Under the pieces are notes generated by a model. It was not told the origin of the DNA, made no database searches, and saw nothing but the letters and a program-made list of their open reading frames with translations. Both the position numbers and the translations under genes were made by a program. A stretch of DNA of 62,092 nucleotides, filler included. It is 7 parts of 7 records of this genome, joined end to end, with 100 filler letters (N's around TTAATTAATTAA, not from the genome) between each part and the next. Parts side by side here need not be neighbours in the genome. Positions count along the whole stretch, not along the records: positions 37,673 to 42,849 come from SRR31156797_31844; 6 more parts are not named here. One strand, written 5' to 3'. Shown piece by piece: positions 7,320 through 55,832 of the stretch; the first letter of the stretch is position 1, and every line of letters starts with the position of its first letter.

Positions 7320-8189
7320 ATGAAACAGGAAATGTCGGCACCAAAAATCAGGCGGGCGCCTAGCGACTTGGTTTGGCCCGGAGGGCGCAACGTCGCCGTG
7401 GTATTCAACGTTGCCTACGAGACTTGGTCCGACGGCAATGTTTCGGGTGTGGGTCCGATGGGCAATCCTCTGCCCGCCGGCGTCTTTGACGCGAACGCCG
7501 ATTCGTACGGCAACTACGGCGCAAACTGTGGCATTCAGCGCCTGTTGCGGGTGCTGGGGCGGGCCAAGGTTTCGGCCAACATCTATGCCAGCGGCAGACT
7601 GGCCGAACGTTCCCCTGACCAAGTGAAGCGTGTTGCCGAGGCCGGGCACGAGATCGTTGGCCACGGCTATGCGCAGGACCTTATCCCGGCGAAACTGACA
7701 CCCGAGGATGACGAAAGATACGTTAAGCAGACAACCGAACTGCTGACCTCCGTCATCGGCAAACAGCCGACCGGCTGGATCAGCCCGCGTGCGACGGCCA
7801 ACAACGACACGTTTTGTCGGCTTGCCAAGGCCGGCTACAAGTGGCACGGCGACGTGCTGGATACCGACCTCCCGTACATTCAGGAGTTCGAGGAGGGCAG
7901 CATCGTCGCTGTTCCGCTCAGCATCGACCTCAACGACCTGGCCCACGCAATGCGGTTTGGCCGCACACCCCGGCAGTTCATCGAGGTCTTCGACGACTTC
8001 CTGTACCATGCACTCGCCAACAGGGATGAAACCATCATCATCGATGTGCTCGTCCACACCCACTGCTACGGCCGCCCCGGCGGCGCCTGGGCCTATGAGG
8101 AGATCGCTCGGAAGTGCGCCCAGCGGGATGACATCTGGGTCACCACCCGCGGCAAGATTGCCGAGCATTTTCTCAGCCAGCTTAAGTAA
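7320..8189 (+). CDS. Polysaccharide deacetylase-family hydrolase (PuuE-like)
   Basis: WPGG...VAYE, YG.NCGIQRLL, GHEIVGHG, PTGWISP and DLPY motifs. Confidence 0.88.
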   Translation: MKQEMSAPKIRRAPSDLVWPGGRNVAVVFNVAYETWSDGNVSGVGPMGNPLPAGVFDANADSYGNYGANCGIQRLLRVLGRAKVSANIYASGRLAERSPDQVKRVAEAGHEIVGHGYAQDLIPAKLTPEDDERYVKQTTELLTSVIGKQPTGWISPRATANNDTFCRLAKAGYKWHGDVLDTDLPYIQEFEEGSIVAVPLSIDLNDLAHAMRFGRTPRQFIEVFDDFLYHALANRDETIIIDVLVHTHCYGRPGGAWAYEEIARKCAQRDDIWVTTRGKIAEHFLSQLK

Positions 8190-13721: not shown

Positions 13722-13821
13722 NNNNNNNNNNNNNNNNNNNNNNNNNNNNNNNNNNNNNNNNNNNNTTAATTAATTAANNNNNNNNNNNNNNNNNNNNNNN
13801 NNNNNNNNNNNNNNNNNNNNN
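13722..13821. other. Artificial contig spacer
   Basis: N-run with central TTAATTAATTAA; composition changes across it. Confidence 0.98.
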
Positions 13822-24646: not shown

Positions 24647-24746
24647 NNNNNNNNNNNNNNNNNNNNNNNNNNNNNNNNNNNNNNNNNNNNTTAATTAATT
24701 AANNNNNNNNNNNNNNNNNNNNNNNNNNNNNNNNNNNNNNNNNNNN
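24647..24746. other. Artificial contig spacer
   Basis: N-run with TTAATTAATTAA. Confidence 0.98.
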
Positions 24747-37572: not shown

Positions 37573-37672
37573 NNNNNNNNNNNNNNNNNNNNNNNNNNNN
37601 NNNNNNNNNNNNNNNNTTAATTAATTAANNNNNNNNNNNNNNNNNNNNNNNNNNNNNNNNNNNNNNNNNNNN
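37573..37672. other. Artificial contig spacer
   Basis: N-run with TTAATTAATTAA. Confidence 0.98.
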
Positions 37673-38076
37673 GAATTAACTTGGCCATAAAAAGATGGTG
37701 ATCTCAGAAAATGGTAAAGATAGACTGGCAGGATATTTTCAGTTTTGCATCGCAGAATGACCATTCCAGAGTTTATCCGCATGTGGTCATATTGAATCGC
37801 GTCACTGTAGTAGGCTGAATTCCCTATTGTCCCCCTTGTTGTCAAAATGACATCGCCACGGCAAAGCTTGCCTTTACGGAGAGCGCCGTCTTTCTGTTCT
37901 GAGATAAACTGGCAATCAGAAAAATCAAAACCGCTTTTAGTCACATTGGTCGCACTCAAGAAAAGACAGTGCCCTTCAGAAGCAAATTCATTCTGCTTTG
38001 GGTAATTCTTGCCTCGGTCGCCATCAATAATATCGAAAGGGGCAAACTCAAAATTTGTCAGCACAGAGCTTTTCAT
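37673..38076 (-). CDS. hsdS: Type I R-M specificity subunit, N-terminal TRD, truncated
   Basis: DGDRGKNYP, GDVILTTRGTIG and INSGMVILR; ATGA overlap with the hsdM stop. Confidence 0.92.
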
Positions 38077-40226
38077 ATCCCCAGCTCCTCAAAATTCTTT
38101 TTGATCAGCGCCGCCAACTTCACAGCTTCGGCATTGAGATCGTCCAGCTCTACATGGATTTCTCGCATGGTCTCTTCAAAATCGAAGTTTTCATCCTCCT
38201 CTTCCGGCGCCACGCCCACATAACGCCCCGGAGTCAAGGACCAGTCATTTGCCTCGATTTCTGAACGGTCCACAAGCTTAACCAACCCTTCCACGTCACA
38301 TAGCTCAGCTTCTGGAAATCGCTCGGTCAACCAATGTGCCTGCCGCCAGAAATATCGTACCTGCTTTAGCTGCTCTACCACAAGACTACGGGCCTTATCC
38401 AAAGCTTTATGAGCAAGTTTAACCTCTTTCCTCGTCCAGGTATCACTTTCAAGGGCGTTGCATTCGGTTTCACAAACTTCGATCACGCGTGATGCCCATT
38501 TGAACAACAAATCGGTCTGCTTGACCAAGCTGCGGCTGGATTCTGCCAATATTGCCATCTGGTCAACGGATTTCTTCAGCGCACCGTTGGTGGTTTTTGT
38601 TTTTTTCTTCCATGCGGCGCGCTGCTTACCCAGCTCCTTTTTGAATCCCTTAATATCATTTTCACACTCGGTTGTTGCAGAACTGAATTCAGTCCATACT
38701 TCAGCATGCGCATCATCCTTTGCGAGTGTCTTGACAAACGGATGAACCGTATTTATTAGTAAATCCGAGCATTTATAAAGATAGGGTAAGGGGGTAACAG
38801 TCTCACCATTTTCATCCTGGTTTTCAAAACAACCGGCCGCCTCGTCCAACATCCGCTCGCAATATGCATGAACCTGGTCAAGGTATCTTTGCGTCTGGTC
38901 GCGATAAAGGGCGACAATTGCAATGATGTTCCGCTCCTGCTCCGGTGAAAAATCATAAATTTTGCGAGTCACCTTACGGTATATGTTGCGGGCATCGATC
39001 ATTAGGACCTTATCCCTATTCCCTTCAGGTTTGTTCCGATTCAGAAACCACAGTTCACAAGGAACGGTACGAGTATAGAAAAAGTTGGAACGGATGGCGA
39101 TCATGATATCCACATCGCCGGTCTCAATCAGCTTTTGGCGGACCTTCGCTTCATCACGACCGGCACTGGATGCTTGGGAAGACATGACAAAACCGGCGCG
39201 GCCATTTTCGTTTAGATAGCTATAAAAATAGCTAATCCATACGTAATTACCATTAGACACCTTACCCTTTCTGCCCTTCGCCTTTTTGTCCTTTGGACCA
39301 GCACCTTTGCTGACTCCTGGAAGACCAAATGGTAGTCGTGGGTCCCTCTTGACTTTATCTGCGTCGATCTCGTCCACATTAAACGGCGGATTGGCCATTA
39401 CATAATCGGCCTTTCCAACCAGTTCATGGGGATCTTCATAATAGGTAATTGCTTTCTGAATATCACCTTCCAGACCATGGACGGCCAAATTCATTTTGGC
39501 CAAACGGATAGTAGTTGCGTTTTTTTCTAAACCACGAAAAGTTAACTGTTCGGTAGGATTCTGGCCATGCTCTTCAACTGTACGGGCACTTTGAACAAAC
39601 ATACCACCTGATCCACAGGCCGGGTCGAGCACGACACCACGTACGGGATCTAAAACATGGGCAATCAGTGAAACCAAAGAAATGGGTGTGAAAAACTCTC
39701 CACCATCGTGCGCTTTCTGGTCCGCAAACTGGGTTAAAAAGTATTCATAGATGCGACCAAAGACGTCACCCGTAACTTTTTTTAATTTATCAGGATTCAG
39801 CGTGCGCAAAAGCTGTCCAATGACGTCGTTGTCCAGTTCCTGATATTCACTTTTAGGTAATACGCCGCGGAGGTTTTCGTAATCCGATTCGATGGATTCC
39901 ATAGCATCGATGATCGCTTTGTCCCGGTCTGCCCCATCAGGCATTTCTACAAGATAGTCGAACTGTGCTTTAGATTGAAGGAAAATTGCACTCTTTTGGG
40001 AAAAATCTTCTTTGGTCAGCGCTCGCGTTTTACCACCGCGTTTTGGTAAATTGGCCTCGATTTCGGATTTTACCAACAAATAACGACTGAATGCATGCCG
40101 TAAAAAAACCAGTCCCATAACCGGCAGGAAATATTCGTTACTGGCATAAGCGGAGTTGGCCCTTAAGGTATCCGCCGCAGTCCAAAGTCGCTTTTCGATA
40201 GCTTCGATATGTTCAAGTTGCGTCAT
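38073..40226 (-). CDS. hsdM: Type I R-M methyltransferase subunit with intact motifs
   Basis: LWTAADTLRAN, GEFFTP, DPACGSGGM, ANPPF and SLTPGRYVG; ATG at 40226. Confidence 0.97.
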   Translation of the reverse strand: MTQLEHIEAIEKRLWTAADTLRANSAYASNEYFLPVMGLVFLRHAFSRYLLVKSEIEANLPKRGGKTRALTKEDFSQKSAIFLQSKAQFDYLVEMPDGADRDKAIIDAMESIESDYENLRGVLPKSEYQELDNDVIGQLLRTLNPDKLKKVTGDVFGRIYEYFLTQFADQKAHDGGEFFTPISLVSLIAHVLDPVRGVVLDPACGSGGMFVQSARTVEEHGQNPTEQLTFRGLEKNATTIRLAKMNLAVHGLEGDIQKAITYYEDPHELVGKADYVMANPPFNVDEIDADKVKRDPRLPFGLPGVSKGAGPKDKKAKGRKGKVSNGNYVWISYFYSYLNENGRAGFVMSSQASSAGRDEAKVRQKLIETGDVDIMIAIRSNFFYTRTVPCELWFLNRNKPEGNRDKVLMIDARNIYRKVTRKIYDFSPEQERNIIAIVALYRDQTQRYLDQVHAYCERMLDEAAGCFENQDENGETVTPLPYLYKCSDLLINTVHPFVKTLAKDDAHAEVWTEFSSATTECENDIKGFKKELGKQRAAWKKKTKTTNGALKKSVDQMAILAESSRSLVKQTDLLFKWASRVIEVCETECNALESDTWTRKEVKLAHKALDKARSLVVEQLKQVRYFWRQAHWLTERFPEAELCDVEGLVKLVDRSEIEANDWSLTPGRYVGVAPEEEDENFDFEETMREIHVELDDLNAEAVKLAALIKKNFEELGI

Positions 40227-40353
40227 ATTATTTCCCTTCAATAATTTTAGAATAAAATCAAAGTTTTCCGACCATTGGCAAATCCATTTTCAAAACACTT
40301 ACCTGTAAACACCAATCCTAATAAACGGTAACCTTCTTGTTATTTTTATGAAT

Positions 40354-42150
40354 TTAATAATTCCAATGCCTTTTTTTTATATTATCCAATTGCTTTCTTA
40401 GATCATTCATTTTTTGTTGGATTGCTATCTCGTCTTCAAACGATTCTAATACCTTTTGCTGTTCTTCATTTGTAAGAATGATCACCGGAAAAGTCTTAAT
40501 GTCTCGAACTTGAATCATCTGCACAGCGGTACCAGCAGCTTTTGATTTGATCATTTCTTGGCCTACCGAGGAACGTAGGTACATGTATAAAACTCGAGGA
40601 TCAATGATTGACCTTTTATTTTTTAACCGTAGGATTTGAAAAGACTGACCAGCGAGCCATTCACCTTCAAAATTTGGTGGAACAATACCAACTTCACCAA
40701 TAGTCCCCTTTGTTGAAAGCAGAATATCTAAAGGTTCAAGGCATTGTTGTTTGGCCTTAGAAAGCATTTTATTGCTAACCAACGAAGTACGTTCCGGTTT
40801 TGAAATATATCCTGTCAAAGGAACATCACTTACCATAACCTCTAAAAATTCATGAATCCCTTCTTCTCTTGAACGGACTGACTGTGACCGAGCTAAATCA
40901 GCTATCTTTTTTAGCTCAACCACCTTGCTTGACTCTATTAGTTTTCCGAGACTTTTTTGATCTGAAGACAATACATATCGATTCGGTAGAAGGTTAAAAT
41001 CATTATCCGCACAATTTTCAGACGATACAAGCTCAGAGTACGGGCCATTACTCGGATTTTCGAGAATGGATACAATCTCATCTATGTTGTCCAATGTATT
41101 GCGGCCGTTCTGCCGTTTGTAAAAGTTTTCAGACGAGGCATCAACAAAGAGAATATCATAGGGCAAAGCATTGTCAGAGCGTAAATTTAGAACAATAAGT
41201 GCGAAAGGAATGGTTGTATTAGGCAGTAGGGCCGGGGGTAACGAAATAATTGTTTCCAGCAATCTATTTTCAATGAGATCTTGTTTTAACTCTTTCTCCC
41301 CAGCACTTGTTCTAAAAAGCACCCCAAGAGGAACTGCGATTATTGCTTTTCTTTTTGTTTGGGCAATACAATGCCGTATATGCAATACTTCTCCGTATAA
41401 AGATTTTTCTGGAAAACGATTAAAAATATCAGCAAGTTTTTTGCGATAACGAATGCCAAAAGGTGGAAAGGCAAGAGTGACATCAAACTTTCTGAGTTTC
41501 CCATTTTCCACTAAGGTTGGCGCTTCAATGGGATCACTGAACTTTGGCTGCAAATTGATGTCACAGAGGATATTAACAATATAAGGATAAGGTGAAACAA
41601 AATGGCTCTCAGTAAAAATGTTATCTGTGTAATCGGAACTACGAATTGCCCCATTATATGAGGATTCAAAAGGACAATAAACATTATCACTTGGTTGGAT
41701 TGCAGCTATTTCCGTTGCAAGCGTAGCTACTTCATAAGGTATTAGAGTCAAGTCGGAGCGAGAATTTGAATATTGCACTATTTCCCATACAGCTTTTTTA
41801 TAATCTATAATGTTACTTTGATAGGCAGACCATAAATAATCCAAAAGTTCAGTCAAAGTACTGTGATTCATTCTGGATATCGTACCTTTTTTAACTTCAA
41901 AACCTTTAGCGTTTAGTCCAATATCCGGATTTTCTGTTAATTCCAGAAAGAGGTATTCCAGCAAGGAAGGGTGAATTGGGCCTTCAGCGAAACGGGCAAC
42001 TTCAAATTTTTTTTCATCGTGAAGTATGCCTTGTTGGGATAGTTTTAGCCAGCTTAGTACTTGAAGAATAAAAATATTGGGTGATGGCGAAGTTATGGAG
42101 GATTCACTGCGCAATATGTTATATATGTTAGATATGAATTGGCTGCTCAT
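40354..42150 (-). CDS. HsdM-like N6-methyltransferase fold with degenerate motifs, fused to a single HsdS-type TRD
   Basis: Motif X reads DLTLIP, motif I reads VYCPFESSY, motif IV reads AFPPF. HsdM scaffold kept (GVLFR, IISLP, LFVDAS, FNLLPNRY). C-terminal DILLSTKGTIG...YLRS...EEQQKV TRD. Confidence 0.85.
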   Translation of the reverse strand: MSSQFISNIYNILRSESSITSPSPNIFILQVLSWLKLSQQGILHDEKKFEVARFAEGPIHPSLLEYLFLELTENPDIGLNAKGFEVKKGTISRMNHSTLTELLDYLWSAYQSNIIDYKKAVWEIVQYSNSRSDLTLIPYEVATLATEIAAIQPSDNVYCPFESSYNGAIRSSDYTDNIFTESHFVSPYPYIVNILCDINLQPKFSDPIEAPTLVENGKLRKFDVTLAFPPFGIRYRKKLADIFNRFPEKSLYGEVLHIRHCIAQTKRKAIIAVPLGVLFRTSAGEKELKQDLIENRLLETIISLPPALLPNTTIPFALIVLNLRSDNALPYDILFVDASSENFYKRQNGRNTLDNIDEIVSILENPSNGPYSELVSSENCADNDFNLLPNRYVLSSDQKSLGKLIESSKVVELKKIADLARSQSVRSREEGIHEFLEVMVSDVPLTGYISKPERTSLVSNKMLSKAKQQCLEPLDILLSTKGTIGEVGIVPPNFEGEWLAGQSFQILRLKNKRSIIDPRVLYMYLRSSVGQEMIKSKAAGTAVQMIQVRDIKTFPVIILTNEEQQKVLESFEDEIAIQQKMNDLRKQLDNIKKRHWNY

Positions 42151-42160
42151 ACGGATCTCC

Positions 42161-42421
42161 TTAATACGAATTGTAGCTATTTAGGTGATATGTGGTTATT
42201 TCCATATTGCCCTCCTCAACAACGACCAAGCCCCCTTTTTCAATCATTTTCTGGGCAACTTTTTGGACGGACCGTAATTCATTCAGTAAACACTGAAGAC
42301 CTTTTTTATTCAGGATGACTTTATCTTGTTTTTTGATGCCGTATTTCATAGTTAGGTCAACCATGGATTGCCGAATACCTCTTTGGGACATTCTGGCTTG
42401 GATGTGGCGTGTTTTGCTCAT
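42161..42421 (-). CDS. DUF4258-like small protein (putative RelE/BrnT-fold toxin)
   Basis: TRHIQARMSQRGI...G...LVVV...ITTY pattern; basic, 86 aa; GGGGAG RBS. Confidence 0.7.
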   Translation of the reverse strand: MSKTRHIQARMSQRGIRQSMVDLTMKYGIKKQDKVILNKKGLQCLLNELRSVQKVAQKMIEKGGLVVVEEGNMEITTYHLNSYNSY

Positions 42422-42455: not shown

Positions 42456-42487
42456 AACATAATATGCTTGATTTAAATAGTCAAGCA
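42456..42487 (-). promoter_or_regulatory. Sigma70-type promoter overlapped by a palindromic operator
   Basis: TTGACT-17 bp-TATGTT on the minus strand; TGCTTGA-N9-TCAAGCA at 42465-42487. Confidence 0.7.
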
Positions 42488-42675
42488 CTGATTTTTATAT
42501 TTTTTACTTGATTAACAATTTAAGGTGTGGATTATTGGTGCGAAGTGGGATGCTGATAGAGTGAACCACCGGTAAGCATTGAATATATTGACAAAATAAT
42601 ATGTTAGAGTCTATCCTACTCAAGACTCCCACTCTCAATTTCCCACGCATATGCACAATCAGGAGCGCCGAGCGC

Positions 42676-42849
42676 ATGAACAAAATCCAACTCATTCAAA
42701 CCTTAAAAGACGCAAACGGTCTATCCAAGCCAAAAGCTGAATCCATCGTGAACCTGTTTTTCAATGAAATGGCCGAGGCGCTGGCAAATGGGGACCGAGT
42801 TGAAATCCGGGGATTCTGTTCATTTTTCGTCAAGGAATACGATGGATAC
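42676..42849 (+). CDS. IHF/HU-family DNA-binding protein (IHF beta-like), truncated
   Basis: MNKIQLIQ...GDRVEIRGFCSF; AGGAG upstream. Confidence 0.9.
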
Positions 42850-42949
42850 NNNNNNNNNNNNNNNNNNNNNNNNNNNNNNNNNNNNNNNNNNNNTTAATTA
42901 ATTAANNNNNNNNNNNNNNNNNNNNNNNNNNNNNNNNNNNNNNNNNNNN
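42850..42949. other. Artificial contig spacer
   Basis: N-run with TTAATTAATTAA. Confidence 0.98.
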
Positions 42950-48529: not shown

Positions 48530-48629
48530 NNNNNNNNNNNNNNNNNNNNNNNNNNNNNNNNNNNNNNNNNNNNTTAATTAATTAANNNNNNNNNNNNNNN
48601 NNNNNNNNNNNNNNNNNNNNNNNNNNNNN
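48530..48629. other. Artificial contig spacer
   Basis: N-run with TTAATTAATTAA. Confidence 0.98.
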
Positions 48630-55732: not shown

Positions 55733-55832
55733 NNNNNNNNNNNNNNNNNNNNNNNNNNNNNNNNNNNNNNNNNNNNTTAATTAATTAANNNNNNNNNNNN
55801 NNNNNNNNNNNNNNNNNNNNNNNNNNNNNNNN
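55733..55832. other. Artificial contig spacer
   Basis: N-run with TTAATTAATTAA. Confidence 0.98.

Follow-up and report, generated by a model that had tools for sequence, protein, structure and literature searches.

A small DUF4258-like protein and a degenerate HsdM-TRD fusion form a conserved gene pair beside type I restriction-modification genes: a candidate guard module

In a 62,092-nucleotide (nt) stretch of DNA composed of seven joined contigs (the window), the hsdM and hsdS genes of a type I restriction-modification (R-M) system are preceded by two closely spaced genes, one encoding a basic protein of 86 amino acids (aa; 42161-42421, minus strand) and the other a 598-aa protein (40354-42150, minus strand) in which an HsdM-like domain is fused to a single target recognition domain (TRD) of the HsdS type. 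The fusion belongs to a family that has lost the catalytic motifs of HsdM, and the same gene pair recurs across phyla, in nearly every case in or beside type I R-M clusters. We tentatively read the pair as a guard module that combines a toxin with a pseudo-methylase, is linked to type I R-M, and has analogs in Ronin and PrrC, and we hold this reading with somewhat less than even confidence. The layout described in an earlier note on this DNA, an 86-aa open reading frame (ORF), a 10-bp gap, and a 598-aa ORF with its own AAGGAG ribosome-binding site, was confirmed from the ORFs and the sequence: the stop codon of the small ORF (TAA, 42163-42161) is followed 10 nt on by the ATG of the large ORF at 42150, and AAGGAG (42162-42157) overlaps this stop and precedes the large ORF. 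The pair is also co-oriented upstream of hsdM-hsdS, as the note had said, with all genes on the minus strand and hsdS truncated where the contig ends.

The large protein has an M-S1/2 architecture, that is, an HsdM-like domain, one TRD, and a conserved-region helix, with half of an S subunit rather than a full one. In Pfam searches, N6_Mtase (PF02384) matched residues 214-398 with 85 bits, over profile positions 121-308 of 311 only, and one Methylase_S (PF01420) domain was found at residues 451-577. The AlphaFold2 (AF2) model, with a predicted local distance difference test score (pLDDT) of 88.2, contains a helical N-terminal domain (aa 1-135, 41746-42150, minus strand), which is the most variable part of the family, followed by a Rossmann-type domain, one TRD, and a 35-residue terminal helix. 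The TRD, with an isoelectric point (pI) of 9.5, and the long C-terminal helix (aa 561-595) are encoded at 40357-40950 (minus strand). Foldseek, named as a check in the earlier note, found HsdM folds for the large ORF: the top matches were 7eew_A (E 9e-24), PacII M1/M2, and 3lkd, and E values against solved HsdMs ranged from 1e-17 to 1e-24. A profile search against solved HsdM and HsdS chains gave its best value for PacII (1e-33). Pfam, AF2, and Foldseek agree on an HsdM scaffold and a single TRD in one chain, as the note had proposed. Among defense-system models, the fusion matched only the generic MTase_I and Specificity_I models of PADLOC-DB v2.0.0 plus a weak mad5 at 56 bits, and the NCBIfam MAD5 model at 64 bits, against a cut-off of 400.

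In profile alignments to solved HsdMs, the fusion has VYCPFESS at motif I, (V/I)YDPACG(S/T)G, and AFPPFG at motif IV, ANPPF, while TLIPYEVATL aligns with motif X, EF(F/Y)TP. The degenerate motif I core VYCPF, in place of (V/I)YDPACGSG, lies at 41668-41682, and FPPF, in place of NPPF, at 41458-41469 (both minus strand). The three substitutions listed in the earlier note are thus real, but their description as drift relative to the hsdM next door does not hold: BLASTP aligned the fusion with the adjacent hsdM at 28% identity over 68 aa (E 0.002), so the fusion is not a recent copy of its neighbor but a member of a separate, old family. This family was collected by an exhaustive search of 50%-identity representatives, which gave 417 matches at E<1e-30; the best 150 of these 417, down to E 1e-57, are nearly all 570-660 aa long. 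A word-indexed search returned 24 near-full-length relatives, and the relatives of the fusion are full-length open frames at 25-50% identity.

Loss of the catalytic motifs extends through the whole family. In an alignment of 162 sequences (the query and 161 fetched members of 520-700 aa, with shorter and longer rows dropped), the most frequent residues at the first position of motif IV were F in 67, A in 15, I in 13, M in 13, V in 11, L in 10, S in 8, and N in 8, those besides F and N being mostly hydrophobic. At motif I, the family consensus has no G-x-G, and the site of the G-loop is now a conserved Y-x-P-(F/W/Y), with Y158 in 157/162, P160 in 141/162, and F, W, or Y at position 161 in 153/162. 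The catalytic motifs have been lost family-wide under continued purifying selection, and the fusion is, to judge from the loss of motifs I and IV throughout the family, very probably non-methylating, in agreement with the earlier note. E181 at the motif II position is kept in 152/162 sequences, D206 at the motif III position in 123/162 (with N in 25 more), and P211 in 157/162; by these counts, the pocket region, including the new motif, is still under selection.

The TRD does not behave like that of a diversifying specificity subunit. In functional type I enzymes, TRDs undergo shuffling and are hypervariable. In the fusion family, the mean pairwise identity of the TRD (0.33) is close to that of the M domain (0.31), and the N-terminal domain stands at 0.17 against 0.31-0.33 for the other domains. 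TRD identity also tracks M-domain identity and stands at 0.80 for the 11 pairs with M-domain identity >70%. A TRD that evolves in step with its M domain, unlike working TRDs, fits a constant ligand better than a diversifying DNA specificity. Nor is the TRD closer to the HsdS encoded beside it (22.4 bits) than to other HsdS proteins (21.8 bits) at the nine loci compared.

The small protein is basic (pI 9.89, 15 K+R versus 7 D+E), and the large protein is acidic. The small protein has no long hydrophobic stretch and was modeled by AF2 (pLDDT 85.8) as a soluble alpha/beta fold of two helices (residues 5-13 and 18-27), a beta-hairpin (29-31 and 34-36), a long inserted helix (39-61), and a second beta-hairpin (65-70 and 73-79). 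Among 30 relatives of 80-119 aa, T4, H6, M11, Q13, R14, G15, I16, G63, G64, and T76 are invariant and Y78 nearly so; H6 and R14 sit on the first helix, and T76 and Y78 on the last strand. The DUF4258-like pattern recognized in the earlier note stands for the relatives, 23/31 family members matching PF14076 at E<=0.01 (best 1.6e-8), and for the topology, but the match of the window protein itself falls below the cut-off (E 0.0023, 18.6 bits, gathering cut-off 25). Several plasmid relatives are named DUF4258 by NCBI.

In the accessible text of a 2026 preprint (10.64898/2026.08.28.747851), the colicin-like BECR group, DUF4258 included, is given the topology pre-alpha, alpha, and beta1-4; residues of the active site are placed on the pre-alpha helix, where His is common, and on beta4, and the characterized members are said mostly to cut tRNAs. 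The conserved residues of the small protein fall in the same elements as the active site described in that text. DUF4258 is also listed among the BECR toxin families in the accessible part of the review by Gerdes (PMC11980606). Like DUF4258/Ntox49 BECR toxins, the small protein has an H-x(3)-R-x(3)-RGI-type N-terminal signature, the same helix and strand order, and a conserved first helix and last strand. Unlike them, it has a helix of ~23 residues inserted between beta2 and beta3, and unlike the antitoxin-first DUF4258 entries in the table of PMC11980606, its gene lies upstream of the partner gene. The model and the conserved residues point to a putative RNase toxin of the colicin-like BECR fold, divergent within DUF4258.

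To examine how far the two genes belong together, 18 independent loci of the fusion family were compared: the window, L001 from GTDB contigs, L047 and L048 from metagenomes, L101-L107 and L110-L113 from plasmids, and L122, L125, and L126 from sampled genomes. A hidden Markov model (HMM) of the small family placed the small gene directly upstream of the fusion in 11/18 loci (the window, L001, L047, L101, L102, L103, L110, L111, L112, L122, and L126). The co-occurrence for which the earlier note had proposed a survey is found in 11/18 loci, with the genes usually 1-23 bp apart; the gaps in the nine unsplit pairs are 10, 10, 23, 189, 1, 8, 9, -55, and 9 bp, the value of -55 bp probably reflecting an overcalled ORF start. 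In Desulfamplus magnetovallimortis (L001), the genes are 71% and 85% identical to the window pair, and both genes remain intact frames from this level down to ~30-40% identity in other phyla. The pairs span Desulfobacterota, Cyanobacteriota, Pseudomonadota, and Campylobacterota and are often plasmid-borne. The small and large proteins show weak co-divergence (Spearman 0.29, p 0.03), and a Mantel r of 0.71 (3/5000 permutations) is driven by a few close pairs. Fused small-plus-large forms were absent from 33 longer candidates, which is weak evidence, and co-folding of the fusion with the small protein scored 0.00 in a run that had no controls and carries no weight either way.

The pairs are also tied to type I R-M, as the earlier note had suggested from the window: 10/11 are located within or next to type I hsdM/hsdS(/hsdR) clusters. 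The neighboring genes are hsdM-hsdS in the window, L001, L047, and L103, hsdR-hsdM-hsdS in L102 and L126, and hsdM-hsdS-hsdR in L112, while hsdM-x-hsdS-x-hsdR-SprT lies just upstream of the pair in L101. In L122 (4658-7950), tandem hsdM genes (585 and 515 aa) downstream of the pair are followed by an HTH-Peptidase_M78 gene and hsdS; L111 has type I remnants only. The exception is L110, where HEPN genes follow the pair and there are no type I genes. hsdR is present in the cluster at L101, L102, L112, and L126. The neighboring HsdMs, from 515 to 722 aa, are of different types, so the link is modular rather than inherited with one R-M lineage. The fusion precedes hsdM-hsdS without the small gene in L113 (Lactococcus) and L125, and it stands alone, with neither type I genes nor the small gene, in L048 and L105-L107. 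Family members occur in defense-rich plasmid regions, where Bil-like, SIR2-HerA, DUF262, and HEPN genes adjoin. The defense islands that hold these loci include a multiubiquitin-E2-ThiF-DUF6527 cluster in Oscillatoria (L116, 248-2871), SIR2 plus HerA in a Campylobacterota genome (L125, 2241-5386), and a DUF262 gene in Aromatoleum (L102, 12918-13704).

The small family has other partners as well. It was found in 23 plasmid records, beside a fusion-family gene in seven and elsewhere in 16; of these 16, four were examined, the other 12 being Aeromonas, Acinetobacter, and Moraxella records. In L108 (353-1475), the small gene lies 281 bp upstream of a gene for a 194-aa unknown protein, in L109 (5001-6011) upstream of a gene for a DUF3944/Ubiq_cyt_C_chap protein, and in L114 (4001-5029) and L115 (4001-5048) upstream of genes for LRAT-family proteins (221/222 aa). 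An HMM of the fusion's N-terminal domain found no match in these alternative partners. Unrelated partners of this kind fit partner swapping of a toxin. Together with L108, the arrangements found on Acinetobacter, Moraxella, and Aeromonas plasmids in which an LRAT-family or DUF3944 partner follows 16-25 bp downstream of the small gene count as additional candidates for two-gene modules, and L115 carries two extra fragments of the small gene (7689-8178).

A conserved RNase-type small protein, a dead full-length M-S1/2 protein, tight gene coupling, type I linkage, and defense-island and plasmid settings together suggest a toxin that is held by a look-alike of the methyltransferase core, and the parallel to Ronin and PrrC makes the model of the earlier note a reasonable best guess. 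In such a model, the 86-aa protein would be a colicin-like BECR (DUF4258-type) RNase toxin, with tRNA or another RNA as its most likely target. The 598-aa pseudo-enzyme would still be shaped overall like a type I methyltransferase half-complex, with its M domain, single TRD, and dimerizing helix, would be unable to methylate, and would probably form (M'-S1/2)2, a look-alike of the M2S1 core. In the uninfected cell, the pseudo-methylase would keep the toxin silent. Once the type I enzymes are disabled by a phage or plasmid, for example with the DNA mimics Ocr or ArdA filling the DNA groove of M2S1, the pseudo-methylase would be hit alongside them, the toxin would be freed, and growth would stop (abortive infection). 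Toxicity, neutralization by the fusion, dimerization, and the trigger are what we infer. The fully specified version, in which the dead M-S1/2 family is an effigy of the type I core whose dimer cages a colicin-like tRNase that is freed when Ocr/ArdA fill the DNA groove, is doubtful, although we regard it as a serious possibility. The remnant of the cofactor pocket (E181, D206, and Y-x-P-aromatic) could add a second input, such as depletion of S-adenosylmethionine or another adenosine-type ligand.

The closest described parallel is Ronin, a decoy immunity system of E. coli ECOR55 composed of RonA, HsdM, and HsdS, for which the accessible part of the report describes a small lethal protein that is suppressed by HsdMS and released by Ocr/ArdA, independently of methylase activity (Silas et al., 10.1101/2023.04.06.535777); PrrC is described there as working in a like manner with the type Ic enzyme EcoprrI. 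As in Ronin so described, type I M/S-type genes are directly preceded by the gene of a small effector, here with a 10-bp gap, and the proposed logic would be the same, namely a small effector held by an M/S-type protein, with methylase activity dispensable and anti-restriction as the trigger. The parts differ, however. According to the same text, RonA has 61 aa and a predicted transmembrane helix, HsdM and HsdS are separate proteins with NPPF, and most Ronin genomes have no hsdR; here, the small protein has 86 aa and is soluble, basic, and of DUF4258 type, the partner is one fused chain with one TRD and with motifs I and IV lost, and complete-looking type I systems adjoin. The likeness to RonA was judged from its description, not its sequence. 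With PrrC, the pair would share an RNA-cutting suicide effector encoded inside a type I R-M locus, which is proposed to be set off once the R-M enzyme is blocked by a phage. The module here has an 86-aa predicted toxin with its own dedicated pseudo-methylase partner. PrrC, in contrast, is a large ATPase-nuclease that is silenced by the active R-M enzyme itself.

Two structurally solved enzymes are also instructive. The best Foldseek match, 7EEW, is reportedly a "minimal intact methyltransferase," in a phrase attributed to Seo et al. (2022). By the title of its PDB entry, 7EEW was crystallized with Ocr, so proteins of this architecture can bind Ocr. The accessible part of PMC12429846 identifies this Vibrio vulnificus YJ016 protein as a fusion of the HsdM-S1/2 type and states that two such chains recapitulate M2S1. 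It shares with the fusion the HsdM domain, one TRD, and the conserved-region helix in one chain, but differs at motif I (YDPAMGTGG versus VYCPF), and the sequence relation is weak (79 bits, below canonical HsdMs). At motif IV, 7eew_A aligns as S-G-V-P-F-G, with no Asn or Asp, in a local alignment only; this protein, too, may be a relative that is inactive or non-canonical. In PacII, both M subunits are active according to the accessible text of PMC9613975 (PDB 7VRU/7VS4). The fusion loci resemble PacII M1M2S in having a second M-like protein in a type I locus, as do the two tandem hsdM genes of L122, but unlike the PacII subunits as described there, the fusion has no catalytic motifs and carries its own TRD. 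PADLOC-DB v2 and NCBIfam contained no system-specific model for the pair, the small protein matched none of the families in PADLOC-DB v2.0.0, and no description of the pairing was found in the literature, subscription journals and supplements lying outside the search; the earlier note likewise had not recognized the architecture. The concept of a decoy or guard for type I R-M is known, and the parts and architecture are new.

Several observations weigh against a guard module. A six-frame search of the remaining 7/18 loci found the small gene absent, so the pseudo-methylase also works without the small protein, and L110 was reached via the small protein, so that the pairing count taken from the fusion is 10/17. 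Five or six of the 18 loci have no type I genes nearby, and where loci keep hsdR and a complete, working-looking R-M system, a separate decoy is not obviously needed. In view of its unrelated partners elsewhere, the small protein could be the component that stays constant, as a regulator or antitoxin, with the effector role falling to the large partner; because the small family pairs with LRAT-family and DUF3944 partners too, the roles of toxin and antitoxin are assigned provisionally. The window protein scores below the DUF4258 gathering threshold, and the accessible text of PMC11980606 states that no DUF4258 member has been studied experimentally. The model of the small protein also found no match among solved structures: Foldseek against the PDB gave nothing usable (best E 1.2), VIA-align wide reached a best Z of 3.6 by matching coiled coils on the inserted helix, and the lowest E from a profile search of the PDB sequences was 0.082.

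Other explanations of the pair were weighed against these data. An ordinary toxin-antitoxin (TA) or addiction pair, in which a DUF4258-like toxin is neutralized by a large antitoxin derived from an M-S fusion and the pair stabilizes plasmids and islands, or responds to general stress or to turnover of the antitoxin, without any sensing of anti-restriction, is unlikely but deserves attention. It would account for the tight spacing and common direction of the genes, for a basic small and an acidic large protein, for the many plasmid-borne members, and for a small family with other partners, as expected of TA partner swapping; adjacent co-directional genes, one of the criteria for type II TA systems, are seen at the sequence level, and DUF4258-MqsA toxin-antitoxin fusions are reported in the accessible part of PMC11980606. 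It leaves unexplained, however, why 10/11 pairs sit at type I operons of different HsdM types and why different phyla conserve a full 600-aa M-S1/2 scaffold whose TRD is basic, and 7/18 loci keep the large protein without the toxin. We consider it rather improbable that the dead M-S1/2 protein is instead a type IV-like sensor that reads a sequence or a foreign modified base through its TRD and base-flipping pocket and, once bound to invading DNA, activates the RNase. The conserved, basic TRD and scaffold motifs are consistent with such a sensor, as is the selection on E181, D206, P211, and Y-x-P-aromatic, which suggests a retained ligand or base pocket, but the TRD shows no sign of specificity diversification and is no closer to the neighboring HsdS, and the variability of the first position of motif IV argues against a tuned reader pocket.

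It is about equally improbable, in our estimate, that the fusion is an accessory or regulatory subunit of the neighboring type I enzyme, for example one that titrates HsdR and so dampens restriction while a plasmid-borne system becomes established in a new host, with the small protein as an adaptor or regulator instead of a toxin. The gene heads hsdR-hsdM-hsdS or hsdM-hsdS clusters in L102, L103, L112, L125, and L126, several loci are on conjugative plasmids, and in L113 and L125 the fusion adjoins type I genes with no small gene present, all of which would suit such a role. Yet the L110 pair has no type I genes and the fusion occurs alone in L048 and L105-L107, neighboring HsdMs of different families are a poor fit to family-specific HsdR contacts, and the small protein has an invariant His/Arg RNase-family signature rather than a DNA-binding fold. 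That the fusion is simply a dying hsdM-hsdS duplicate beside a chance small ORF, as its degenerate motifs and the AT-richness of the pair relative to hsdM might suggest, is hardly credible: both genes are conserved intact across phyla, motif loss is family-wide, and the fusion barely resembles the neighboring hsdM. Local decay, for which the earlier note would have expected homologs to keep NPPF, was rejected on these grounds, N being present at that position in just 8/162 sequences.

The contigs of the window are joined by N44-TTAATTAATTAA-N44 linkers (13722-13821, 24647-24746, 37573-37672, 42850-42949, 48530-48629, and 55733-55832), so genes on opposite sides of a linker are not physical neighbors, and the usable context of the pair is the 5177-bp contig at 37673-42849 only, with hsdR outside view. 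Contig GC content varies between 0.40 and 0.60; the bin is possibly mixed. On this contig, the canonical hsdM occupies 38073-40241 on the minus strand (722-aa ORF; likely ATG at 40226) and has intact motifs and a long C-terminal extension. Its product matches N6_Mtase at 249.7 bits and HsdM_N in Pfam, keeps GEFFTP, DPACGSG, and NPPF, and matches the PADLOC MTase_I model PDLC03035 end to end (8e-250). The helical extension has ~270 residues, and a similar 782-aa HsdM adjoins the pseudo-methylase in L125. The 5' part of hsdS (37673-38076, minus strand; Methylase_S E 0.014) overlaps the hsdM stop and is cut by the contig end. As the earlier note had remarked, the pair is more AT-rich than hsdM, the fusion gene having a GC content of 0.375 and the small ORF one of 0.395, versus 0.465 for hsdM.

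Upstream of the small ORF, a ribosome-binding site GGGGGAG (42432-42426) stands 4 nt ahead of the ATG, and a consensus scan gave a promoter-like site, TTGACT-17-TATGTT (42484-42456, minus strand), which is a pattern match only. A palindrome, TGCTTGA-N9-TCAAGCA (42465-42487), overlaps the -35 of this site and is a possible operator; in the corresponding region of L001, the -35 is similar and the palindrome is kept only in part and not clearly conserved. No terminator-like site was found by pattern scan between the large ORF and hsdM. A partial HU/IHF-type gene (42601-42849) just upstream of the small gene is transcribed divergently from it, and an HU gene lies ~4.6 kb upstream in L111 as well.

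The fusion family is rare. It was found in 6/1604 sampled genomes, a lower bound, since scoring was limited to the top three candidates in each genome: 1/401 in the phylum of L001 (E<=1e-50), 3/401 in cyanobacteria, 0/401 in the G403 phylum, and 2/401 in the G404 phylum, two of the three cyanobacterial members being the same records as plasmid matches. One true member was left from 37 loci in the scan of GTDB contigs and two from 54 loci in the scan of metagenomes, the rest being canonical HsdMs that were dropped. In phage collections, 0/16 tblastn matches covered >=80% of the fusion query, and in IMG/VR viral contigs, none of 90 pattern matches was confirmed as a family member. The plasmid rows H8, H11, H13-H15 (of the type of H12), and H16-H17 (canonical HsdM) stand outside the survey.

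Variant forms of the fusion were seen at several loci. On two alphaproteobacterial plasmids, from Roseomonas and Roseovarius (L111, 6238-8132; L112, 7284-8986), the pseudo-methylase is split into N-terminal parts of 258 and 184 aa and C-terminal parts of 373 and 383 aa; the split falls at about the same place, either as a natural split form or through parallel frameshifts. In the cyanobacterial plasmids L104 and L106, which have no small gene, the fusion's N-terminal domain is shortened, and a 65-aa hypothetical gene abuts the 3' end of the pseudo-methylase gene (L104, 6195-6392; L106, 7386-7583), followed by an integrase, and may encode a different partner. The Lactococcus cremoris plasmid pJM2A (L113, 4407-6209) encodes a divergent 600-aa M-S1/2 protein directly upstream of hsdM-hsdS, with no small gene upstream, which keeps a G-rich motif I, DATAGTAG, and GDTL and has VPPF at motif IV; proteins of this type were found on four further lactococcal plasmids (H11 and H13-H15).

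To our knowledge, guarding of restriction systems against phage anti-restriction is known from a few cases only, namely PrrC, PARIS, retrons, and Ronin, and reports of the decoy form represented by Ronin are limited to E. coli and its relatives. If the guard-module reading is correct, the pair would represent a second, structurally distinct decoy solution, in which a purpose-built dead methyltransferase core is combined with an RNase-type toxin in a module spread over at least four phyla and plasmids. In the fully specified version, type I restriction systems would carry an "integrated decoy" guard as a standard accessory across phyla. The DUF4258 family would thereby gain a defined biological setting. 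Among genes with the annotation "N-6 DNA methylase" or "subunit M/S," hundreds would probably be non-enzymes, which would matter for the annotation of methylomes and R-M systems.

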